This document shows positions 1-27,459 of a DNA stretch of 32,204 nucleotides, in pieces (the stretch's first letter is position 1; each line of letters begins with the position of its first letter). The position numbers were made by a program, and so were the translations under genes. The stretch spans positions 1 through 32,204 of the forward strand of contig CAYWRN010000011.1 in NCBI GenBank assembly GCA_964461095.1. The letters are read 5' to 3'. The notes beneath the pieces are model-generated. The model saw nothing but the letters and a program-made list of their open reading frames with translations. It ran no database searches and was not told the DNA's origin. The stretch is from an uncultured Gammaproteobacteria bacterium (GTDB taxonomy: Bacteria; Patescibacteriota; Microgenomatia; UBA12405).

Positions 1-54
1 GCTGCACGTGAGGCTCATAATCTCACAGGCTGGGTTCAACTCCCAGCCCCGCAA
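1..54 (+). tRNA. tRNA-Met (anticodon CAT), 3' portion only; 5' end lies outside the window
   Basis: Anticodon arm TGAGG/CTCATAA/TCTCA with CAT at 16-18. T-arm CTGGG-TTCAACT-CCCAG (30-46). 3' acceptor strand CCCCGCA plus discriminator A (47-54), the same 3' acceptor as E. coli initiator tRNA. CCA not encoded. Confidence 0.7.
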
Positions 55-383: not shown

Positions 384-389
384 TTTTAG

Positions 390-463
390 TGGGTGCACCA
401 GGATTCGAACCTGGGACCACCGACTTATAAGATCGGTGCTCTAACCAGCTGAGCTATGCACCC
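390..463 (-). tRNA. tRNA-Ile with UAU anticodon
   Basis: Reverse complement folds as a 74-nt cloverleaf: GGGTGCA-TA-GCTC-AGCTGGTTA-GAGC-A-CCGAT-CTTATAA-GTCGG-TGGTC-CCAGG-TTCGAAT-CCTGG-TGCACCC-A. The anticodon loop CU-UAU-AA gives UAU. CCA not encoded. Confidence 0.85.
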
Positions 464-1303: not shown

Positions 1304-1960
1304 GTGAATTTAAAAAAAATTGGGCGATGGTTGACGGTAGTATCAGTGAGTATAGCTATGGGAGTCTTGTGGTATCCATGGTTGGCCTTAAAACAAGACA
1401 AAGTAAATTTAGCTGTAAAAAGTGATTTTAATCAAAATCAAAATGAGGCAATTTTTAGAAATAAACAGGTAAGTGTACCTATTGAAAAAATCGGAGAAAA
1501 CTTGGGCAAAACTATTTTGGGAGATACACAAGTAAAAGCAAATAAAAGGATTGAAATTGATTTAGATAGACAAAGGTTGTACGGCTATGAAGATGGTGTC
1601 AAGGTAATAGACTTTCTAATATCTAGCGGGACATGGAACAGAACACCAACAGGGACATTTAAAATATGGGCAAAAATAAAATCACAAAAAATGAGTGGCG
1701 GATCAAAAGAACTGGGGACATATTATTATCTACCTAATGTACCGAATATTATGTTTTTTTATAATGAGGATGTGCCTAAACAAATGGGCTATAGTATTCA
1801 TGGGGCATATTGGCATAATAGCTTTGGTAGGCCAATGTCACATGGCTGTATCAATGTAGGGATTGAAGATTCAAAAAATGTGTTTGAGTGGGCCGAGATG
1901 GATACGCCAATTGAAATTTATGGCAAAATGCCAATAGTAGCTTTGCCGTGGGCAAACTAA
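1304..1960 (+). CDS. L,D-transpeptidase (YkuD domain)
   Basis: GTG start, N-terminal TM anchor. Catalytic motif HGAYWHNSFGRPMSHGCINV (His...Ser-His-Gly-Cys). Confidence 0.85.
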   Translation: MNLKKIGRWLTVVSVSIAMGVLWYPWLALKQDKVNLAVKSDFNQNQNEAIFRNKQVSVPIEKIGENLGKTILGDTQVKANKRIEIDLDRQRLYGYEDGVKVIDFLISSGTWNRTPTGTFKIWAKIKSQKMSGGSKELGTYYYLPNVPNIMFFYNEDVPKQMGYSIHGAYWHNSFGRPMSHGCINVGIEDSKNVFEWAEMDTPIEIYGKMPIVALPWAN

Positions 1961-1966
1961 TAACTA

Positions 1967-1994
1967 GATTTATGATTTAGGATGTAAGATATAG
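1967..1994 (+). repeat. tandem heptanucleotide array (GATTTAT GATTTAG GATGTAA GATATAG)
   Basis: Four consecutive 7-nt units beginning 7 nt after the TAA stop of the L,D-transpeptidase gene. Same family as the arrays at 13780, 24022, 20105 (inverted) and 11320. Confidence 0.7.
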
Positions 1995-2596: not shown

Positions 2597-3604
2597 TTAG
2601 ATTAGTTGGTTGACAGCAAGTTTGGATTTGACTTGTTTTAGAGTGCTAGAAACGACTTGTTGAGCTTTTTTGGTACCTTCGACCAGAATTTCTTTGGCCA
2701 GTTTGGGTCTGTCCTCGTAATATTTACGCTTATCTCTAATAGGAGCTAAAAAGTTATTTAGAGCAATAAAAAGTTTGTCTTTGACTTCCCTATCGCCTAC
2801 TTGGCCATTTTTGTACCTAGTTTCCAGATCTTTAACCTCATCAATGTTGGGGTTGAAGGCCCGGTGATAGTCAAAAACGGGATTGCCGTCAACACGGCCG
2901 GGGTCAGTGGCATGAATACGGGATGGATCAGTGTAACAGGCGTTAATTTTTTGCTTTAAAGTGGCTTCGTCGTCTGATAACAAAATGGCATTGTGGCCGG
3001 ATTTGCTCATTTTGTTGACTCCATCGGTACCTATAAGACGGGGAACACGACCGACCATGGCCTTGGGGACAACAAAAGTATCGCCAAAAGCACGGTTGAA
3101 ATCACGGGCGATTTCTCTAGTTTGCTCAATAACGGGTAACTGGTCTTCTCCAACCGGGACAAGATTGGCATTGAAACCTAAAATATCGGCAGCCTGAAGG
3201 ATTGGATAACAAATAAAACCCATAGACGGGTCAAACTTTTTATACTTGATTTCATCTTTGACTGAGGGATTTCTGACTGCCCTGGCATGAGTAACCATAG
3301 TTAGAAAATAAGAATAGAGCTCTAAAGTTTCGGGAATGCCTGACTCAAGATAAATAGTAGAAACCTTGGGATCGATACCAACTGCCAGATTATCTAAAAA
3401 AACCTGGTAAACATTTTGATTGATAATATCGCCCGACTTGTAATCGTTGGCGTAAGCATGGACATTGGCTAGTAAAATATAAGTATCGTACTGGTGTTGA
3501 AGTTTGACACGGTTTTCCAGCGTCCCTACATAATGACCTAAATGAAGCCGGCCACTAGGGGTGTCACCGGTAAGAATACGGGGTTTAGTATTTTTAGTAG
3601 TCAT
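2597..3604 (-). CDS. trpS: tryptophan--tRNA ligase
   Basis: Class I motifs TGDTPSGRLHLGHYVG (HIGH) and KMSKS. 335 aa, typical TrpRS length. Confidence 0.95.
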   Translation of the reverse strand: MTTKNTKPRILTGDTPSGRLHLGHYVGTLENRVKLQHQYDTYILLANVHAYANDYKSGDIINQNVYQVFLDNLAVGIDPKVSTIYLESGIPETLELYSYFLTMVTHARAVRNPSVKDEIKYKKFDPSMGFICYPILQAADILGFNANLVPVGEDQLPVIEQTREIARDFNRAFGDTFVVPKAMVGRVPRLIGTDGVNKMSKSGHNAILLSDDEATLKQKINACYTDPSRIHATDPGRVDGNPVFDYHRAFNPNIDEVKDLETRYKNGQVGDREVKDKLFIALNNFLAPIRDKRKYYEDRPKLAKEILVEGTKKAQQVVSSTLKQVKSKLAVNQLI

Positions 3605-5359: not shown

Positions 5360-5782
5360 CTGGTGAAAAAGACGGTCTATGTCGGATCTGACCGGGTCTT
5401 GTTTTTGGGCTTTTTCGAGATATAACTTGGAACTATCTTGGTCACCTATGGTGTGGTAAAGAAGACTAACTTCTATAAGATCATCTGTGGAAAGAGTGGT
5501 CCTTTTTAATAAATTCGATATAGCTTGGGTAATATATTTAGGATGGTATTTTTGGGCAAGATAGGCAATATCCTGAGGATCAATTTGTTTGGCTAGTTCA
5601 TCGGCCCTGGTGAAATTTTGATCGATGACCAAATGGTGCCACTTAGCTAATTTCTGCTGGTACTGGTCACCAATTGATAAAGGGTAGTAACTAGTAATTA
5701 GTAACGAGAGACAAGTAACGAGGAGAGAGAGGAAACTAGGTACTAGAAACTGTCGGCCAAGACGAGGCGGCAATAAGGTCAT
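5351..5782 (-). CDS. hypothetical membrane-anchored protein
   Basis: N-terminal TM helix (FLVPSFLSLLVTCLSLLITSY) then a helical repeat-like region. Overlaps the valS 3' end by 47 nt and the rplY 3' end by 9 nt. Confidence 0.5.
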   Translation of the reverse strand: MTLLPPRLGRQFLVPSFLSLLVTCLSLLITSYYPLSIGDQYQQKLAKWHHLVIDQNFTRADELAKQIDPQDIAYLAQKYHPKYITQAISNLLKRTTLSTDDLIEVSLLYHTIGDQDSSKLYLEKAQKQDPVRSDIDRLFHQLF

Positions 5783-7682
5783 CGGTTAATTTTAGCTTAT
5801 TTCTTAGCTCCTGGTAAATAGACTCAGTAGCGAATGGTATAAAGGGATGCATAAGCTTAAGACAGGTTAAGAGGATGTGGTAGAGAACGGGGACGACCTC
5901 AACTCCTCTATCTTTAGTGGATTCGATATAAACATCACAAAAATAGTGCCAAAAATAGGCATAAAGCTCTTCAGTGGCTTGACCAAAACGATAGGAATTG
6001 ATTTTCTTGGTGACGGAAACAATTAATTCATTTAGTTTTTTTAGAGCCTCTTGATCTGTCTTAATTAGCTTTGATTGATCAATTTTGGTCAGGTTTAAAT
6101 TGGGATTAGTCTCCAGGAAACGATCGGAAATGATAGTAACAAAACGGCTGGCGTTCCAAATTTTGTTGACAAAATTACGCATGGATTCGATTTTTTTGTC
6201 AGACAAGGCAATATCACTGGCCGGAGCAACACCATAAACCAGAGCAAAACGAAGAGGATCGGCACCATATTTTTCGACGATAGTAGAAGGATTGATAACA
6301 TTGCCTTTGCTCTTGGACATTTTTTGACCTTGTTCGTCGGTAACTTTGGCATGAAGATGAACAGTTTTAAAAGGCGTATCGCCAGCTAGATAGTATCCCA
6401 TGATCTGCATCCGGCCGACCCAAAAAAAGAGGATATCCGACAGAGTATCCATAACAGAAGTGGGGTAAAAATGGCTAAAATCTGGATGAGATTTAGCAGG
6501 ATCTTCGACGTTGAAACCGAGGGTGGTCAGGGGCCATTGGCTAGATAAAAACCAGGTATCAAAAGTATCGGTTTCCTGCAAGATATGAGACCCGCCACAC
6601 TTGGGACAGGCTTTGGGGGCGTCAACATAATAAGTGGCGTCGATAGGGGCATTTAGGGACTGAAGACCAGAAACAATTTGGCTAAAGTCGTATAAATTTT
6701 TTAGGGATTTATAAGAACCGGAAATAAATTTTTTATCTTTGTCCAGGAAATTTAGTTGAATGTCGGGGTGACAATCAAGACAGTACCAAGCCGGAATCCG
6801 GGGACCCCAGACATTTTGACGGCTGATGTTCCAATCTCTAATGTTTTCCATCCAATCAAGATAAACTTTTTTGAAGCGAGTGGGAAAAAGTTTGGTATGG
6901 CCGTCTTTAACGGATTTGATGACAGGTTTGGCAAGAGGGGTGGTTTTGACATACCACTGAGGCATCGGCAGTGGTTCGATTAGATTTTGACAACGGTAAC
7001 AAACAGAAACAGTGTGCTCAAGAGGCTCAATTTTGATAAGTTTACCAGCCTTTTTGAGAAGCTCAACAGTTTGGGTACGAGCCTGTTTGGGAAAAAGACC
7101 ATCAATTTTGGGAATAGTGTTGACCATATGGCCATCGGGCTGAATACAAGAAACTAAACTAAGACCATGTCGCTTACCGATTTCAAAATCAGTGGCATCG
7201 TGGGCCGGAGTAATTTTGAGGGCATCGGTACCAAAACCGATTTCTACCAAGTCGTCGGCAATAATAGGAATTTCCTTGTCAATTAAAGGAATTTTGGCCA
7301 TTTGACCAACTAAAGACTTATATTTTTTGTCTTTGGGGTTGACGGCAACAGCGACATCAACAAAGATGGTTTCGGGACGGGTGGTGGCGATTTGGATAGA
7401 ACCATAGTCCAGATAATAAAGAAAATCTGACCTGTTCTGGTGGTCAATTTCCAGATCAGAAAAAGCAGTACCACAGTGAGTACAATAATTAACGATCCGG
7501 TCATCACGGTACAAAAGACCGTCGTGGTGCATTTTTTTAAAGGTAGCCAAAACTTGCTTGACTATATCTGGCTCTAAACTATAGTGATAACGGCTCCAGT
7601 CGAGAGCAAAACCAAGCTGTTTTAATTGGAATTGATTGAGATGACGATTTTCTTCGACATAGTCCCAAATCATTTGGTACAA
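5736..7682 (-). CDS. valS: valine--tRNA ligase, C-terminal 649 codons (downstream of an in-frame TAA)
   Basis: CP1 editing, Zn-type CxxC...CxxC, KMSKS (KMSKSKGNVI) and anticodon-binding regions. The reading frame continues upstream to 7733 with ValRS-like sequence (KNLSKKGQSRFDFDRDTLYQMIWDY). The 'start' at 7682 is only a TTG in that frame. Confidence 0.9.
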   Translation of the reverse strand: MYQMIWDYVEENRHLNQFQLKQLGFALDWSRYHYSLEPDIVKQVLATFKKMHHDGLLYRDDRIVNYCTHCGTAFSDLEIDHQNRSDFLYYLDYGSIQIATTRPETIFVDVAVAVNPKDKKYKSLVGQMAKIPLIDKEIPIIADDLVEIGFGTDALKITPAHDATDFEIGKRHGLSLVSCIQPDGHMVNTIPKIDGLFPKQARTQTVELLKKAGKLIKIEPLEHTVSVCYRCQNLIEPLPMPQWYVKTTPLAKPVIKSVKDGHTKLFPTRFKKVYLDWMENIRDWNISRQNVWGPRIPAWYCLDCHPDIQLNFLDKDKKFISGSYKSLKNLYDFSQIVSGLQSLNAPIDATYYVDAPKACPKCGGSHILQETDTFDTWFLSSQWPLTTLGFNVEDPAKSHPDFSHFYPTSVMDTLSDILFFWVGRMQIMGYYLAGDTPFKTVHLHAKVTDEQGQKMSKSKGNVINPSTIVEKYGADPLRFALVYGVAPASDIALSDKKIESMRNFVNKIWNASRFVTIISDRFLETNPNLNLTKIDQSKLIKTDQEALKKLNELIVSVTKKINSYRFGQATEELYAYFWHYFCDVYIESTKDRGVEVVPVLYHILLTCLKLMHPFIPFATESIYQELRNKLKLTDDLIAASSWPTVSST

Positions 7683-7733
7683 AGTATCTCGATCAAAATC
7701 AAACCTAGATTGACCCTTTTTACTAAGGTTTTT

Positions 7734-8015
7734 TTAGAAAACAAACTGGGTTTCGATACCAGCATGATCGGCACCGGGAAGCCACATAACTTCTTCGCCC
7801 AACATTTTGTGAAATCTAATTAAAATATCCTGAATGACAAACATGGCGTGACCCATATGCATGGGATCATTGGCGTTGGGTAGGGGTAAAATAATGGAAA
7901 AAGGTTGGTCTTTAGACGATTTGGTGGACTTGGTGATAGCAGGACTGTAGATTTTACTATTTTCCCAAAGGGAGTAAATTTCGGCCTCAGATGCGGGATT
8001 ATAACGCTTGTCCAT
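7734..8015 (-). CDS. valS: valine--tRNA ligase, N-terminal 93 codons (ends at the in-frame TAA 7734-7736)
   Basis: PLPNANDPMHMGHA (HIGH-region equivalent) and WLPGADHAGIETQ. Same frame as 5736-7733. Confidence 0.9.
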   Translation of the reverse strand: MDKRYNPASEAEIYSLWENSKIYSPAITKSTKSSKDQPFSIILPLPNANDPMHMGHAMFVIQDILIRFHKMLGEEVMWLPGADHAGIETQFVF

Positions 8016-8030
8016 AGGGGTATTTTAGCA
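8016..8030 (-). promoter_or_regulatory. extended -10 promoter of valS (leaderless geometry)
   Basis: Minus strand reads TGC-TAAAAT-ACCCCT-ATG. A TTGTCA -35-like hexamer lies upstream. Confidence 0.5.
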
Positions 8031-8131
8031 TGAGATAGTTGACAATTTGTGACTGATAAAATCGATATGTACTAAAAGTGCTCTGGTTAATCATTGAATA
8101 TGTATGTATCTCTTTGTAAAATACGCTTATT

Positions 8132-8467
8132 GTGACAAAATTGGGATCATTAATACAACAAGCCCTAAACGCTAATAGAAGTAGTGGTGATTGGTATCCG
8201 GCTGTCGATTCTTGCAGTAAGCGTGCTGTGCCCTGCGGTAATCCTTCTTGCCTCGATAATGCTATGTGGTCAGTAGAAAACCCGATTGCAGCTAGTCAAG
8301 GAATGAAAGAGGCAAGAAAACTTGTTGTTGGTTGTGGAAAAAGTGGAGTTGGTTGTGCTCTAACCAGATACGAAGGGGTGAGTCCACTGGATGTTTTGGG
8401 TACGTTTAGGGCAAGGTACGTCGATGTATATACTATGGTTGTAGCAAGGTCAAAAAATGGTAAATAA
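8132..8467 (+). CDS. hypothetical small Cys-rich protein (orphan)
   Basis: 111-codon ORF with a GTG start. Arg/Gly/Cys/Val-rich, visibly unlike the Lys/Asn/Ile-rich neighbours. Confidence 0.45.
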   Translation: MTKLGSLIQQALNANRSSGDWYPAVDSCSKRAVPCGNPSCLDNAMWSVENPIAASQGMKEARKLVVGCGKSGVGCALTRYEGVSPLDVLGTFRARYVDVYTMVVARSKNGK

Positions 8468-8494
8468 TGAAATATTAGTTTAGGTTCATAGGTA

Positions 8495-8535
8495 TGAGAA
8501 AATAAGGCATGAATTACCTAAGATTAGGGAATTAA
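8495..8535 (+). repeat. copy a of the tsaC promoter + 5' stub (8-codon mini-ORF MNYLRLGN*)
   Basis: TGAGAAAAT-aaggc-ATGAATTACCTAAGATTAGG GAATTAA. Shares 19/19 nt (TGAATTACCTAAGATTAGG) with copy b and the first 12 nt of that core with the real tsaC start. Confidence 0.75.
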
Positions 8536-8546
8536 TTAATATATAG

Positions 8547-9755
8547 TTATTGCACTGAAAAAGTATCTGTTTCGTTGCTATTGATATCAAACAAACTGTA
8601 AGAGGTAAAGGTAGATGGATTATTACCATATTCTGATGCTCCTACTACAAGAATATTTCCATTTATCCACTGTTTGTGATAACCCGATAATTCGTGAACT
8701 ATCTGACTGGTTGAGGTGTCCCAAATTATTGTTTTGGCTTGCCATCTGCCTTGTTCAATTTGATCACCTTTTTTATAGTAGGCCAGATACTTACCTGTGT
8801 TATTTAAAAGAGGCATTTGAACTGAAGCCCAGGGACCAGAATCAACAATGTTACCATCTTGATCCGGAAATTCGGAGAAGGTGATTCTAACACCCGTATC
8901 AGTATTGCCATTATCAACAGTTCTGCTCCAATATTTACCATCAGCAGAAAAAGTGTTTTGGCGACCAAATGAAGTTATTTCATAGTTGACGGTAGCATAA
9001 TCAGCCTCAAAGGTGTCAACATTAAACAAAACCAACCTATTGGCTTGCGCCATACTTCCACTTTGGCTTAGTTCGACTAAGACTCGACTGGAGTCAACAA
9101 ATTTGTCAGCAGTTTTTAATGGATAAAGATAAGTATCGATACCCGAATCTAGGTTAAAAGTGTGGAAACCAGGAGAATTTGATACTGAGAATTGTTCTAT
9201 TGTTCCCCAGGGAGGTTGTATCATCATCTCTCCTCCTTGTTTGCGGATATATAAATCGTCCTGGGGTGAATGGAATAATAATTTTGTACTATCTGGTGAC
9301 CAATCTGTAATGTAATCAACCGGATAATCAGTAATTTTTTGAGTTTGTTGGCCTGTGGCGGAAATAATATATAGATTTTTATTATCATCCAAATTAATAA
9401 AGGCGATATATTTGCCATTTGGTGAAGCAAGGGGGTCACTGTCTCCAAAACCGTAGGCACCACCACCACTGGTAACTTTATACTGGGTTGGTTGAATCTG
9501 CTTGTCAGTTATTGAGTAAAGGTTCAAGGTATTGTCTTTTACAAAAGGAATGGCCATATTTGATGTTTCAGGCTTAGCCCATTGTATTTTGGAAACTTGA
9601 TTGCTATCGTTCTTGGTGGGTTCAACTTGAAGATCTGGTTTGGAGACTGAGACACAGTTTTTGAACTTGTTTCCAAAGTAAAATCCACCTGAAGGTAAAT
9701 GGATAAGTAGAATGATTATTAGGAGAATTCTGATACTTTTTTGGATTAGTGCCAT
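8547..9755 (-). CDS. TolB-like beta-propeller (PD40 repeat) protein, membrane-anchored
   Basis: N-terminal anchor. PD40-like repeats SPNGKYIAFI..., DWSPDSTKLLF, FSADGKYW, NNTGKYLAY. Confidence 0.7.
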   Translation of the reverse strand: MALIQKSIRILLIIILLIHLPSGGFYFGNKFKNCVSVSKPDLQVEPTKNDSNQVSKIQWAKPETSNMAIPFVKDNTLNLYSITDKQIQPTQYKVTSGGGAYGFGDSDPLASPNGKYIAFINLDDNKNLYIISATGQQTQKITDYPVDYITDWSPDSTKLLFHSPQDDLYIRKQGGEMMIQPPWGTIEQFSVSNSPGFHTFNLDSGIDTYLYPLKTADKFVDSSRVLVELSQSGSMAQANRLVLFNVDTFEADYATVNYEITSFGRQNTFSADGKYWSRTVDNGNTDTGVRITFSEFPDQDGNIVDSGPWASVQMPLLNNTGKYLAYYKKGDQIEQGRWQAKTIIWDTSTSQIVHELSGYHKQWINGNILVVGASEYGNNPSTFTSYSLFDINSNETDTFSVQ

Positions 9756-10491: not shown

Positions 10492-11589
10492 ATGAATTAC
10501 CTAAAGATGGGCAAAGATGATGGACAAATTAAAAAAATTGCTAAAGTAGTAAAAAGTGGTGGATTAGTAGTGTTCCCGTTTGATACCTGCTATGTGTTTG
10601 TGGTTGACCCAACTAATCAAGAAGCAGTTGATAAACTGTATGAAATTAAAGGAAGATCGATAAATAAGGCGGTATCGGTGGCTGTAGGTGATCTAGACAT
10701 GGCTCAAAAATATACAAAAATGACTAAACAAAATTTACTAATATGCCAAAAACTTCTGCCAGGCCCGTTTACGATGGTGGTGGAAGGTAAACATAAACTA
10801 GCTAAAGGTATCGAGGCGACGGATGGCAGTTTGGGAATCAGAATACCGGATTTTAAACCAGTACAGGACCTAGCTAAAGCTCTAGGAGTACCGATAACAG
10901 CCACATCGGCTAATGTGTCCGGACAAAGCATTTGCCATAATTTAGCAAGCCTTAAAAATCAATTATCTAGCAAAAAAGAAGCGTTGGTGGACTTGTGGGT
11001 GGATGGAGGACAATTGGCAGTCAGACAAGCTTCAACAGTAATGGATATAAGGGGGAAAAAAATTAAAACACTAAGGCGGGGAGATATTGTATTGGACAAA
11101 AGCGGAAAGGGCCTGGTATCGGAATCAGTAAAGGAAACTAAGACCGTAGCCAAAATGATTTTTGAGAAGGCAATAAAAAATAATAGTCAAAAGCCACTAG
11201 TGTTCTTTTTGACAGGAGACTTGGGCTGTGGCAAAACAGTATTTGCTAGAAAAATAGGCAGGATACTGGGGATAAAAGGCAAAATAGTGTCACCGACTTT
11301 TAATATCATAAACAATTATGATGTAAGATTTAAGATACAAGATTTAAGAATAAAAGAATTTTTACATATCGATTTGTACAGGATAAGAGAAGAGGAGGAA
11401 CTGGAGGAATTGGGATTTTTAAAGTTATTTAATAAAAATACCATTACTTGTATCGAATGGCCGGAAGTGATGGGTAAAAATTATTTTGAAAAATTACGAG
11501 AGAAAGTTTACTGCGTTGACGTTAGTTTTGAGTACGGGGAAACCAAAAAACAAAGAAGAGTTTGGTTTAATTTATCTCAATGCAATTGA
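10492..11589 (+). CDS. tsaC: fused L-threonylcarbamoyladenylate synthase (TsaC/YrdC domain) and t6A ATPase TsaE
   Basis: N-terminal half: YrdC/Sua5 motifs (IKGRSINKAVSV, ITATSANVSGQ, RGD). C-terminal half: TsaE P-loop GDLGCGKT, SPTF, HIDLYRI...ELG. Confidence 0.85.
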   Translation: MNYLKMGKDDGQIKKIAKVVKSGGLVVFPFDTCYVFVVDPTNQEAVDKLYEIKGRSINKAVSVAVGDLDMAQKYTKMTKQNLLICQKLLPGPFTMVVEGKHKLAKGIEATDGSLGIRIPDFKPVQDLAKALGVPITATSANVSGQSICHNLASLKNQLSSKKEALVDLWVDGGQLAVRQASTVMDIRGKKIKTLRRGDIVLDKSGKGLVSESVKETKTVAKMIFEKAIKNNSQKPLVFFLTGDLGCGKTVFARKIGRILGIKGKIVSPTFNIINNYDVRFKIQDLRIKEFLHIDLYRIREEEELEELGFLKLFNKNTITCIEWPEVMGKNYFEKLREKVYCVDVSFEYGETKKQRRVWFNLSQCN

Positions 11590-24056: not shown

Positions 24057-24074
24057 TACAAAAAACAATGAGAT

Positions 24075-24100
24075 TGCTTCGCTGGCGCTCGCAATGACGA
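24075..24100 (+). repeat. copy 1 of a GC-rich direct repeat TGCTTCGCT...GC(T)CGCAATGACGA
   Basis: TGCTTCGCTGGCGCTCGCAATGACGA, about 28 nt beyond the ssrA 3' end. The second copy at 25160-25203 is interrupted by a CCACC-AGA-GGTGG hairpin. Confidence 0.6.
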
Positions 24101-24127
24101 GGCGGATGGTATGTACTGATGGGAACT

Positions 24128-24552
24128 TGGAGGAGATGCCCGGGAATGATCCGGGGTCCGGAAAATCGTTTTAAAAACATCTACAAGCTTAACTTGTTTG
24201 AGCTTATTCTTTGAATTTTAAACAAGCAAACAAATTCAAAGAGCCAACTGGTTGGGTCTTATCCCGCTTAATTTAGATCAAAGTTGAAGTTGAACTAAAT
24301 GCAACCTAGTAAAATGACACCCGTGCTCCTCACCTAGGTGTAAGGGACGGATGGTTAACTTAGCAAGCTGCGACAGGAGCAAATTTGGTATTACCAAATA
24401 AGCTCTGTTCGAGCTCACCAAAGAAATCTTTGGCTAAGTTAACGCCATAAGTTTTTGCTTTGGCATTATATTTTGACATCTGTTTAACGGCTATGAGTCG
24501 AAGCCGGCTTGCAGTCTTTAAAAGTGCTTTTACGTCAAATCTATACATCTCC
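24128..24552 (-). ncRNA. ssrA: tmRNA (ssrA), non-canonical acceptor stem
   Basis: 5' GGAGATG-TATA-GATTTGACG. 3' GGAC-CCCGG-ATCATTC-CCGGG-CATCTCC-T-CCA. Internal tag frame ends GCT CCT GTC GCA GCT TGC TAA (24362-24360 is the stop). Downstream of smpB on the same strand. Own promoter. Confidence 0.8.
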
Positions 24553-24564
24553 GTAAACAGGTGT

Positions 24565-24593
24565 ATTGTAGCAAAAAGTGGGTAAAAAGGCAA
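24565..24593 (-). promoter_or_regulatory. ssrA promoter
   Basis: Minus strand reads TTGCCT-N17-(TGC)TACAAT, ending 12 nt upstream of the mature 5' GGAGATG. Lies immediately downstream of the stop codon (24597-24599) of the upstream YD-repeat gene. Confidence 0.55.
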
Positions 24594-24596
24594 AAA

Positions 24597-25097
24597 CTAG
24601 TTTTGTGGATGTACTATTTGTGTTTTTTTGTAAAGATAATCAGGCTTATTGGGATCATATTCGTATGTTTTGGTGATTTGGAGTACAGGCTCTTTTGGTT
24701 CGACTAATTCAGGATTTCTACTATACCATCTCTCTTCAACCAGCCTACCATGATCATCATAAACATAGACATCACGATTAGAGCACCCTTTATCGGTTAA
24801 ATGCCGTCTTTTATCAACTAACCTTCCTTGATGATCATAGTGATAATGAGTCGTTAGGTTTGGATTGTATGGACCGGTTTGTTGAAGGACTAATTCAATC
24901 TCACCGCCTATGTCACGAGGAAATGTCGGATCTTCAGGATTAAGAACCGTAAACTCAGCTGGTTTTAAATCCATTATCTGATCCTTATCAAGGACTGGAT
25001 ATCTTACACCTGGAGCTGGTATTTGTGTTAATGTGGGTACATCTTTTTTGGGTTCTGATGGAACAACATGTAATGTACCAGTTACTTCATCTGCCAT
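24597..25097 (-). CDS. small YD-repeat (RHS-like) protein, orphan
   Basis: YHYDHQGRLVDK, YVYDDHGRLVEER and YEYDPNKPDY resemble YD repeats (Y.YD..GRL). 166 codons; Pro/Asp/His-rich composition unlike its neighbours. Confidence 0.55.
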   Translation of the reverse strand: MADEVTGTLHVVPSEPKKDVPTLTQIPAPGVRYPVLDKDQIMDLKPAEFTVLNPEDPTFPRDIGGEIELVLQQTGPYNPNLTTHYHYDHQGRLVDKRRHLTDKGCSNRDVYVYDDHGRLVEERWYSRNPELVEPKEPVLQITKTYEYDPNKPDYLYKKTQIVHPQN

Positions 25098-25647: not shown

Positions 25648-27459
25648 TCAGATGCCAAGTGTATAGATTTTTTGATCGGAAGCAAGAAGGTAGAGAGTTT
25701 TTGATGATTCATCCAGAGCAATGCTTAAGACATCAAAATCAGCAAAACTATATTTAGCTAGAGGTTGACCATCTTTGGTGTAAACCAAAATAGTCTTTGG
25801 GTCGGAAATGAAAGCAATAAGATCCTCGTCTTGGCCAACGAGGAGATTTGAGGCTTGATTGGTTTGAGGAGGATCGGTTAACTTAAAATTGTCTTTTTTA
25901 CCCCGTAAATAGACGGAGATATTGGCTGATTTTGACAGAACCCAGACTTTACCATCAATGGCCAAGTCAACAGGATCGGTAGGTAAGGATTGATCGTCCT
26001 CGAGCCAGGTTTTGGGGTCGGATAAAACGTTATTAACTAAGGAGGATTTGGTAATAGTCTCACTTGACAATATGTAGACACCTGAACCCCAGGTATGAGT
26101 GGAAATGGGATTCTGGGAATCCAAATCAAAGCGCTTTTGCCAGTTTTCTTTGCTTATTAAATAGAAGCCGTCATTAGCGAGGGCATAGGGACTCGAATTA
26201 AAAATTACGATGGCTTTGGTGTTTTTGGCCATTTGATCTGCACTAATCTGACGACTGGACTTACCGGTAATAGAACTAATTAGACCTTTGCTAGTATCAA
26301 GAAGATAAAGGGTATCGGTATCAAAAATTAGTTTTTGATAAGAAGGATCGCTAGTAATGAGTGAAGTGTCGTAGTAGAAGTCTGAATTGGTGTGCTCGGC
26401 TGAGCCAGTTTGAGACAAAATTTGGTCTATCTGGGATTTGTATAAGCTAACCTTATCTGGATAAAGATTTAAGACAGCCATCTGCTCAATTAGAGAGGAC
26501 GTCTGAGAGGCCAAGGTTTTGGCGTCCTCAAGGTTTAGTTTTTTGACTGTGTCAATATTTTTGAGATTATTTAGGATTTCAGATTCGAGTTGACTAAAGG
26601 TTTGTTGCTGTTGTTTTTGATGATTTTTGGTGTAACCAATGGCTAGACTGGCAATTAACCCTAACAAGGCAACAATTCCAATAATCAGATTACGCTTTCG
26701 CTGGACTTGAACATATTTTTGGGGAGCCTGGTTTAGTTGAATTGGTTTTGGTTTAAATATTTTTTTGAAAAATTGGCCAATTTGGTTGACCTTGTTTGTT
26801 TTTGGCTTAAATTCAGGAAAGGAGGTGGATTGTTGGTTTGTTGAGGGCAAGATATTTTCTTGGTCTGGTAGGTCGTAATGTGCCTGGATTAGAGCCAATG
26901 AAAAGGGTAAAGAGGATTTTTTTTGATTAAGATATTCCTCTTGGGCATCAAGGGTAGTTAGTGAAAAAAGGGAAGAAAGATCGCCTAAACTATCGACGAC
27001 CGCCTGGTGAGTTAGAAATAGAATATCCTGATTTTGTAATGGTCCGGTAATTGGATTGTTGTCGGTGGGGTTTATTTGAGTAAATTGGTTGGAGCGTTTT
27101 ATAAAAAGTCGGGCGTTACCACTAAAAACTGCTGACATGGTTTCGTTTTTGACAGCTACCAAAACTAGGGAAATTTGATTGTCGGAAGGTTGGGAAGAAA
27201 TAATATCATTAAGACAATTATTGAGCTGGGTGGAGAAATCCAGATCATTTAGAGTATAGTAAGTTTGGTTGACCCTACTAATGATATTACCGACTTGTTC
27301 GGTTAAATTTATATCTTTTAGTGAGGTTTCGATAGCAACGAAACCAAACAGGTGACCACGTTTGGAGAAAACCAAGCGATCGTCCGGCTCGTTTTCCCAA
27401 TACTTACTAAAGGATGAGTTTAAGTGGTCGACAGGAATATAGCGGCAGGTATAGTGCAT
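25648..27459 (-). CDS. hypothetical membrane protein (N-terminal cytoplasmic domain, one central TM, C-terminal repeat/propeller-like domain)
   Basis: 603-codon ORF with central TM LIIGIVALLGLIASLAIGY. TATACT ends 6 nt before the ATG. Confidence 0.65.
   Translation of the reverse strand: MHYTCRYIPVDHLNSSFSKYWENEPDDRLVFSKRGHLFGFVAIETSLKDINLTEQVGNIISRVNQTYYTLNDLDFSTQLNNCLNDIISSQPSDNQISLVLVAVKNETMSAVFSGNARLFIKRSNQFTQINPTDNNPITGPLQNQDILFLTHQAVVDSLGDLSSLFSLTTLDAQEEYLNQKKSSLPFSLALIQAHYDLPDQENILPSTNQQSTSFPEFKPKTNKVNQIGQFFKKIFKPKPIQLNQAPQKYVQVQRKRNLIIGIVALLGLIASLAIGYTKNHQKQQQQTFSQLESEILNNLKNIDTVKKLNLEDAKTLASQTSSLIEQMAVLNLYPDKVSLYKSQIDQILSQTGSAEHTNSDFYYDTSLITSDPSYQKLIFDTDTLYLLDTSKGLISSITGKSSRQISADQMAKNTKAIVIFNSSPYALANDGFYLISKENWQKRFDLDSQNPISTHTWGSGVYILSSETITKSSLVNNVLSDPKTWLEDDQSLPTDPVDLAIDGKVWVLSKSANISVYLRGKKDNFKLTDPPQTNQASNLLVGQDEDLIAFISDPKTILVYTKDGQPLAKYSFADFDVLSIALDESSKTLYLLASDQKIYTLGI

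Follow-up and report, generated by a model that had tools for sequence, protein, structure and literature searches.

A transfer-messenger RNA without the G3·U70 pair in a subclade of Candidatus Woesebacteria: a coupled switch of positions 3 and 73 and an SmpB loop, with a possible change of the charging amino acid

A tmRNA gene with an A3-U70 acceptor pair downstream of smpB

The stretch of DNA analysed here, referred to as the window, is the whole 32,204 nt of contig CAYWRN010000011.1 on its forward strand; its minus strand carries ssrA, the gene of a transfer-messenger RNA (tmRNA), with smpB, the gene of the partner protein, 670 nt upstream (Table 1). The Rfam covariance model RF00023 matches positions 24128-24552 (-) over its full length (model positions 1-374, 90.3 bits, E 4e-34, gathering score 47), at the same coordinates at which the initial annotation of this DNA had placed a tmRNA downstream of smpB, and an nhmmer profile built from relatives scores the gene at 414 bits. 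ARAGORN, when run on the window, did not call ssrA at 24128-24552, and the covariance model aligned the pseudoknot regions PK1-PK4 at modest posterior probability (accuracy 0.68). Of the features that define a tmRNA, the 7-bp acceptor stem, the T-arm, the encoded CCA, the tag frame and the partner smpB are present.

The acceptor strands of the window tmRNA form seven Watson-Crick pairs, in which 3:70 is A-U, and no other register of the stem yields a G·U at 3:70. The covariance-model alignment left the gene boundaries unchanged and likewise gave no G·U at this position, and both A3-U70 and U73 stand where they had been read before. Among the alanine identity elements, G2-C71 and G4-C69 are found in the window, while G3·U70 and A73 are not.

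Conservation of the gene among relatives

Relatives were gathered by SmpB and not by RNA, and the sample is therefore blind to the tmRNA sequence. Five loci came from GTDB genomes, 80 from metagenomes, and more from exact-protein look-ups; loci are designated below by L and a number. A profile of the first four tmRNAs located ssrA beside smpB in 69 loci, which provided 63 complete tmRNA genes, 54 of them distinct, and our counts refer to one or the other of these sets. The SmpB proteins of this clade are only ~50-80% identical. One of its members is labelled Candidatus Woesebacteria at NCBI (an 845-kb contig) and has A3-U70 with U73.

Several independent features indicate that the gene is maintained. 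An in-frame tag is kept in all 54 distinct genes, and the gene's own promoter, which had been proposed from its TTGCCT hexamer and 17-nt spacing, is confirmed, with an extended -10 element (TTTGnTAtAAT) at a fixed distance from G1 in 50 of the 54 distinct relatives. A hairpin and a T-run follow ssrA in many clade genes. In 54/54 genes all five T-stem positions are paired, each by two to four types of pair; P2a covaries as well, its first pair switching between G-C and A-U, and acceptor positions 1, 2 and 4-7 are invariant in the 54 distinct genes. The gene is thus expressed-looking, structurally constrained and conserved in a subclade of Candidatus Woesebacteria, and the joint conservation of tag frame, promoter, T-stem and P2a pairing, and acceptor stem marks the clade tmRNA as a functional RNA that is strongly selected.

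The missing ARAGORN call and the RF00023 score of the window (90 bits), which lies below the outgroup scores (107-184 bits), would fit an error of sequencing or assembly, or a pseudogene in decay, and the decay of ssrA beside an intact smpB was one of the two possibilities that the initial annotation had raised. However, identical bases, including A3-U70, are seen in dozens of independent assemblies from many samples, and the presence of A3-U70 in 58 of the 63 clade tmRNAs excludes the base-calling error that had already been doubted. ARAGORN also misses the gene of the sister lineage L344, whose tmRNA is of the alanine type, so its failure probably reflects an unusual T-loop and not decay; on the relative L096, it independently calls the same tag frame. 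Refuted by the conservation of bases, promoter, tag frame, covarying helices and an invariant acceptor stem across genomes, an artefact or a pseudogene retains a negligible probability.

Positions 3 and 73 switch together

The 3' acceptor strand reads CAUCUCC in 63/63 genes, and the 5' strand reads GGAGAUG in 58 and GGGGAUG in 5, so that position 3 of the 54 distinct genes is A in 49 and G in 5. The discriminator base depends on this position: the 58 genes with A3-U70 have G73 (32 genes) or U73 (26 genes) and never A or C, and the five genes with G3·U70 all have A73. Across an alignment of 554 columns, only positions 3, 73 and T-stem 63 separate the A3 and G3 classes. When the sister genes are compared, then, A3-U70 proves to be a clade-wide feature, but the U73 discriminator that had drawn attention in the window is not fixed, since G73 is as common in the clade, and N73 swaps between G and U among nearly identical A3 genes (G in L080, U in L084 and L095). 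An 8-bp acceptor stem extended by N-1:N73 pairing was considered and rejected, because the -1 base is mostly U regardless of N73.

G3·U70 with A73 was found in all six outgroup lineages of the candidate phyla radiation (CPR) examined (L339/L341, L344, L347, L351 and L354), as well as in the unrelated Proteobacteria of the sample; the SmpB of L339/L341 is 99% identical to one labelled Woesebacteria. The acceptor stem of the sisters L344 and L351, GGGGAUG/CAUCUCC-A, differs from the clade stem at position 3 alone. In the tmRNA tree as well as in the SmpB tree rooted on outgroups, the clade's G3/A73 genes are nested deep among A3 genes. Because the outgroups are G3/A73 and the clade's own G3/A73 genes are nested in this way, A3-U70 is shown to be ancestral to the subclade, having arisen once at its base, and G3·U70/A73 was regained later inside it. 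The tag of L034 (A3/G73) is identical to the tags of the G3/A73 genes L090 and L096. When the SmpB loop described below is masked, the G3/A73 genomes L036 and L064 have the A3/U73 genome L050 as their nearest relative (92-93% identity), which places at least two coupled transitions in this group; with the one at the clade's base, at least three coupled transitions of position 3, N73 and the SmpB loop are implied in all.

The SmpB loop that accompanies the switch

In the alignment with solved SmpB structures, the motif D68-L77 of the window protein replaces the canonical H-D-P-x-R-x-R-K-L-L-L. The loop reads D-[TK]-[TSN] in 48/48 proteins paired with an A3 tmRNA and x-P-[DN] in 5/5 proteins paired with a G3/A73 tmRNA, the latter being TPDVER, NPDIFIER, PNIITER (two sequences) and DPNIPTER, with the loop of L036 unlike that of the other four. 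Outgroup loops are mostly (D/T/E)-P, although the proline is not universal in alanine-type SmpBs (D-A in L354, E-A in Bacteroidota). The C-terminal tail is retained in the clade proteins, and smpB adjoins ssrA in nearly all relatives. The central loop of SmpB is reported to contact the tRNA-like domain and has been implicated in alanylation and EF-Tu activation (Hudson et al., PMC4131195); judging from the alignment, the segment D68-L77 probably corresponds to this loop. At every transition seen, position 3, position 73 and this loop of SmpB change together.

The tag, its terminal cysteine and the T-loop

The tag frame of the window encodes AKAKTYGVNLAKDFFGELEQSLFGNTKFAPVAAC followed by the stop codon UAA. 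Among the 54 distinct genes, the tags have 24-42 codons, start with GCY, so that the first encoded residue is Ala in 54/54, and stop with UAA; outgroup tags have 10-14 codons in four of the five lineages in which the tag could be read and ~35 codons in L354. The tag ends in Ala in 35 of the 54 genes and in Cys in the other 19, and in nothing else, with endings of the form A-x-C (AVC, AYC, AAC, ASC and others) or ALA/AFA, and all 19 Cys among the 1,718 tag residues are the C-terminal one. The VAAC ending noted at the outset is thus real, although the Cys codon, like U73, is not fixed among relatives. Cys endings occur alike with U73, G73 and A73, which rules out a tie to A3 or to U73, and their presence on the G3·U70/A73 gene of L036 sets them outside the identity change. 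A Cys ending is a genuine and specifically selected alternative for the tag, independent of A3-U70, and suggests an alternative C-terminal degradation signal separate from it.

The T-loop leads to a similar conclusion. Only U55, C56 and R57 are conserved in the clade, and positions 54 and 58 vary freely in both the A3 and G3 classes; the T-loops of the alanine-type sisters are also relaxed (UUCACUG in L344 and UUCGCAG in L351), so that the relaxation is older than the identity change and is probably the reason that ARAGORN fails on L344 as well. The sequence AUCAUUC had been read correctly in the window, but its description as a swap of positions 54 and 58 was discarded as a coincidence between two freely variable positions. 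The four deviations that the initial annotation had joined into one syndrome consequently come apart, with the T-loop and the Cys ending independent of A3-U70. Of its proposal that this lineage charges and uses its tmRNA differently, the part concerning the identity set is the best supported, given the joint switch of positions 3 and 73 and the SmpB loop, while the part concerning a new degron is a separate matter.

A candidate change of the charging enzyme

A tmRNA has no anticodon. Among bacterial identity sets, only those for Ala, Ser and Leu lack anticodon determinants, and that for His relies mainly on G-1:C73 (PMC9976931 Table 1). Since alanyl-tRNA synthetase (AlaRS) requires G3·U70 and A73, the leucine enzyme (LeuRS) requires A73 and the histidine enzyme requires C73, only seryl-tRNA synthetase (SerRS) among these is compatible with a discriminator that is neither A nor C. 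The serine acceptor set consists of G73, C72, G2-C71 and R4-Y69 (PMC9976931 Table 1), and the canonical tmRNA stem departs from it only at positions 3 and 73, the same positions that switch here. G1-C72, G2-C71 and G4-C69 are invariant in the clade, and G73 is found in 32 genes; the other 26, including the window, have U73. The G73 of tRNA-Ser serves as antideterminant towards LeuRS and TyrRS, and for E. coli SerRS it matters in vivo but not for transcripts in vitro (PMC9976931).

Actual tRNA-Ser genes share this acceptor end. In the Woesebacteria locus L339, two of the three tRNA-Ser genes start with GGAG and end with CUCC-G. Among the matches listed in viral contigs, six of the seven distinct tRNAs with GGAGAUG/CAUCUCC and G73 are tRNA-Ser, the seventh being tRNA-Asp, and those with the same stem and A73 are bacterial-type tRNA-Tyr. 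In addition, the tmRNA body extends away from the tRNA-like domain along the direction that a long variable arm takes in class II tRNAs (PMC3929946).

On this basis we consider, with a probability of roughly 0.55, that the alanine identity set (G3·U70 with A73) has been replaced and that a synthetase other than AlaRS charges the clade tmRNA, which would mean that tmRNA has been reassigned across the clade, in an evolutionarily reversible way, from alanine to a different amino acid, with serine the most plausible, through a two-nucleotide switch and the co-evolution of an SmpB loop. SerRS is the leading candidate and takes the larger share of that probability, because it does not require an anticodon and tRNA-Ser genes share the acceptor end with G73; the rest would fall to a different non-alanine synthetase, possibly recruited via the remodelled SmpB loop. 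According to this proposal, AlaRS would no longer charge the tmRNA, and the stalled peptide would receive, ahead of the encoded tag, a residue other than Ala. The tmRNA body would mimic the long variable arm, the main determinant for SerRS, SmpB would help to select the synthetase, and the loss of G3·U70 would also shield a Ser-tmRNA from editing by AlaRS, which depends on G·U. Rescue would otherwise take its usual course, with delivery by EF-Tu, peptidyl transfer, resumption at the GCC codon, translation of the 34-codon tag and release at UAA. Tagged proteins would be expected to carry the junction X-AKAKTYGVNLAK or X-AENKLSR, where X is the residue charged on the tmRNA.

Glycine and cysteine identities, to which U73 might have pointed, were also considered and rejected. 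The glycine set (U73, C2-G71 and G3-C70) disagrees with the clade at 2:71, which is G-C, and at 3:70, which is A-U, and the T-stem of the A3 class has a weaker predicted EF-Tu binding, contrary to what tRNA-Gly bodies show. The cysteine set requires a strict U73 together with the anticodon, and N73 changes between G and U among near-identical genes. The occurrence of G73 in 32/58 A3 genes, as common as U73, counts against both.

A number of observations weigh against a change of synthetase, and against serine in particular. Only about three transitions are counted, and the trees were built by simple neighbor joining from short sequences. About half of the A3 genes, including the window, have U73, whereas every tRNA-Ser seen has G73; no tRNA with GGAGAUG/CAUCUCC and U73 occurs among the matches listed in viral contigs, and the rule of G or U and never A or C at N73 fits no known synthetase. 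The tRNA-Ala and tRNA-Ser of the A3 clade were not found, as ARAGORN on 972 kb of loci gave only Tyr, Ile(UAU) and Met tRNAs, and none of the tRNAs in the clade loci shares the acceptor stem of the tmRNA. Neither alaS nor serS was found by tblastn with approximate E. coli AlaRS and SerRS sequences as probes. The T-stem of the A3 genes has a predicted ΔG of -9.5 ± 0.3 kcal/mol, that is, a weaker predicted affinity for EF-Tu, which serine does not explain. Finally, SmpB could in principle compensate for the lost G·U, leaving AlaRS as the enzyme.

The T-stem values were computed with published ΔΔG values (PMC3239215). G51-C63 is present in 5/5 G3/A73 revertants and in 0/49 A3 genes, and the predicted ΔG of the revertants, -10.3 kcal/mol, equals the class means of tRNA-Ala. 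Calculated tRNA-Ser bodies are as tight as those of tRNA-Ala (-10.1 to -10.3 kcal/mol; PMC3239215), and the alanine-type sisters L344 and L351 already carry C51-G63. Thermodynamic compensation toward EF-Tu as a sign of a new amino acid was for these two reasons downgraded to an argument that is weak either way.

Alternative explanations of charging

The most serious alternative, although clearly the less probable, is that the tmRNA is still alanylated and that either the AlaRS of the clade or, in the role of a cofactor, the remodelled SmpB loop reads the A3-U70 helix by other features, which would have rendered G3·U70 and A73 dispensable. Every tmRNA studied to date is charged with alanine (PMC3968760), the alanine determinants G2-C71 and G4-C69 are retained, and some mitochondrial AlaRS systems function without G3·U70 (PMC9976931). 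SmpB is known to stimulate alanylation (PMC4131195), its loop changed exactly upon the loss of the G·U, and the encoded tag still starts with Ala in 54/54 genes. This explanation does not account for the behaviour of the discriminator: A73, which should be neutral or favourable for AlaRS, is absent from 58/58 A3 genes even though N73 swaps freely between G and U, and it is back together with G3·U70 in 5/5 genes, from which it follows that the canonical set is still read by the AlaRS of those genomes. An AlaRS of relaxed specificity would, moreover, risk mischarging tRNA-Ser, which in a related lineage carries G1-C72, G2-C71, A3-U70 and G4-C69.

Two further explanations retain the tmRNA and change its chemistry or its role, and both are far less probable. 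A tmRNA that is not aminoacylated at all, acting in a charge-independent role or only as a regulatory RNA, would fit the loss of both classical identity elements. Yet the acceptor stem does not vary, the RNA keeps its CCA or a 3' end that can be processed, SmpB keeps its C-terminal tail, and all 54 genes have a tag frame with a selected C-terminal residue (Ala or Cys only). Such a frame can matter only if the RNA enters the A site charged, and we regard an uncharged tmRNA as very improbable. Slightly more improbable still is the deamination of A3 to inosine after transcription, which would turn A-U into a wobble pair, I3·U70, and restore the alanine-like geometry of the helix; it leaves unexplained both the obligatory loss of A73 and the change of the SmpB loop. 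As Musier-Forsyth et al. reportedly found in 1991, I3·U70 is without the 2-amino group that E. coli AlaRS needs, and no enzyme is known to edit position 3.

Features of the locus and neighbouring genes

The coordinates of ssrA, smpB and their parts are compiled in Table 1.

Table 1. Position of the tmRNA gene, its parts and smpB in the window.
Feature	Position	Strand	Basis
ssrA, mature tmRNA of 425 nt including the encoded CCA	24128..24552	-	Rfam RF00023, nhmmer profile
Acceptor 5' strand GGAGAUG, A3 = 24550	24546..24552	-	sequence, clade alignment
Acceptor 3' strand CAUCUCC (24138-24132, U70 = 24134), U73 (24131), CCA (24130-24128)	24128..24138	-	
T-arm: stem CCCGG/CCGGG with C51-G63, loop AUCAUUC (24150-24144)	24139..24155	-	
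Tag frame: resume codon GCC (24464), 34 codons, Cys codon 24365-24363, TAA 24362-24360	24360..24464	-	
Promoter TTGCCT, 17-nt spacer, TG-n-TACAAT (extended -10), 13 nt short of G1	24565..24593	-	
smpB, 136 aa	25223..25633	-	Pfam PF01668 (E 2e-26); PDB SmpB chains down to E 1e-17
SmpB loop motif D68-T-T-D-S-R-P-L-L-L77	25403..25432	-	alignment to PDB SmpBs

A 77-codon open reading frame (ORF; 24360-24593, -) overlaps the promoter, the 5' part and the tag frame of ssrA and almost certainly encodes no protein. In the public assemblies of relatives (L105 11297-11530 and L106 7414-7647), ORFs of equal length are annotated as protein genes beside ssrA and may be related miscalls. Directly 3' of ssrA, at about 24060-24105 (-), the motif tcgtcattgcgagcgccagcgaagcaatctc is followed by a T-run, as also in L001 and L022; this short imperfect palindrome was not called by a terminator scan, and together with the T-run it may serve as the ssrA terminator. 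Small GIY-YIG ORFs adjoin ssrA in L107 and L341. Only in the window are smpB and ssrA separated by a 166-aa ORF (24597-25097, -), which matches RHS repeats weakly; in close relatives, where ssrA follows smpB, the gap between the two is ~60-100 nt, and in most of the clade the two genes are convergent.

Directly upstream of smpB is the gene of a protein of ~590-650 aa that has no Pfam match and a central membrane segment (25648-27459, -, in the window; L104 8176-9948, L344 3217-5163 and L351 4064-5992 elsewhere). In several lineages a DUF5657 protein precedes it, and this layout is found in the A3 clade and in the alanine-type sisters. The 16S rRNA gene is near smpB in many clade genomes (L023 1001-2612; also L040, L061, L081, L091, L100, L104 and L105, at ~7-9 kb). 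It is directly followed by protein genes (uppS-like) and is unlinked from the 23S rRNA gene, and there are therefore no spacer tRNAs.

With respect to tRNAs and synthetases, L339, whose tmRNA is canonical, has a cluster of tRNA-Ser (GGA, GCU and CGA) and tRNA-Arg(GCG) genes at 6777-8856, within 3 kb upstream of smpB, in which Ns cover the 5' part of tRNA-Ser(CGA). The A3-clade genomes L061 (35-107) and L091 (409-481) have a 73-nt tRNA-Tyr that pairs C1-G72 and lacks a long variable arm, of the archaeal/eukaryotic type. In most bacteria AUA is read by a lysidine-modified CAU tRNA, and a genomic UAU tRNA-Ile is unusual; one is present in the window at 389-463 (-) and in L110 at 11268-11342, adjoining tRNA-Met(CAU). 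At the edge of the window, positions 1-54 (+) hold a truncated tRNA of which the 3' part is left (Rfam tRNA model 18-71 at 23 bits, CAT anticodon, end CCCCGCA-A); it looks like an initiator tRNA and forms a small cluster with the Ile(UAU) and Met tRNAs, where independent Logan assemblies break too. The window also has a class Ic synthetase gene at 2597-3604 and a LeuRS ORF of 648 aa (5736-7682, -), which reaches 759 aa in L101 (2504-4783), a Logan assembly of this species with 99.5% identity. Window and L101 differ by two indels over 8.5 kb and by an insertion of ~770 nt near window 1951-1986, which may reflect variation between strains or a frameshift introduced into the window by assembly.

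Comparison with known tmRNA systems

According to reviews, G3·U70 is conserved in all ssrA genes. In the literature covered, outside which lie subscription journals and the tmRNA Website, we found no report of a natural tmRNA without the G·U or charged with an amino acid other than alanine, nor of a tmRNA in Woesebacteria or Microgenomates. Our analysis confirms a clade-wide, reversible and co-evolving tmRNA-SmpB variant that breaks a rule regarded as universal, a natural exception in a clade that plainly maintains the system without G3·U70. Since close genomes in either state differ at two or three RNA positions and one SmpB loop, they constitute a natural experiment, and pairs of A3 and G3 genomes make the charging determinants of tmRNA and the role of the SmpB central loop directly testable. 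If the proposed reassignment is true, the first residue of the degradation tag would not be Ala, and SmpB would share in choosing the synthetase. The C-terminal Cys offers a second, independent lead on the recognition of tagged proteins in CPR bacteria, and the genes missed by ARAGORN represent an annotation blind spot.

Compared with the canonical tmRNA-SmpB system (RF00023, E. coli SsrA), the clade shares the one-piece RNA with its 7-bp acceptor stem, T-arm and P2 helix, the internal tag frame with a GCN resume codon and UAA, the RNA's own promoter, the neighbouring smpB, and an SmpB that combines a beta-barrel core with a basic C-terminal tail. It differs in having A3-U70 for G3·U70, G73 or U73 for A73, and D-T-T for H-D-P..R-K-L-L-L in SmpB, as well as in its tags, which have 24-42 codons compared with ~10-14 in CPR outgroups and end in Cys in a third of cases, and in T-loop positions 54 and 58, which are unconstrained. 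The sisters L344 and L351 resemble the clade in synteny (DUF5657, the ~600-aa protein, smpB and ssrA), in the relaxed T-loop, in C51-G63 and in the sequence context at the resume codon; they differ from it in G3·U70 with A73, a D-P SmpB loop and the short tags AEDTSYGSPAYAYA and AEDNSEASYALAYA.

Among tRNAs, tRNA-Ser (L339; viral contigs) shares with the A3 tmRNAs the acceptor end G1-C72, G2-C71, A3-U70 and G4-C69 with G73, whereas the tmRNA has no true variable arm or D-stem, and hence no C11-G24, and half of the clade has U73. In the account of Nameki et al. 1999 given in PMC3929946, the identity of E. coli tmRNA was switched from Ala to His by engineering in vitro; as far as that account goes, trans-translation tolerates a charge other than alanine, which supports the reassignment favoured here, and the clade differs from the engineered molecule in that its change arose in nature, is ancient, extends across the clade and goes together with changes in SmpB. 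A precedent for rewired identity within Microgenomates is provided by the CPR bacteria in which tRNA-Tyr and tRNA-Trp have identities of the archaeal type (Mukai et al. 2017, PMC5370408), to which the C1-G72 tRNA-Tyr genes of L061 and L091 correspond; that case, in contrast to the present one, involves ordinary tRNAs with horizontally acquired synthetases and not a tmRNA.

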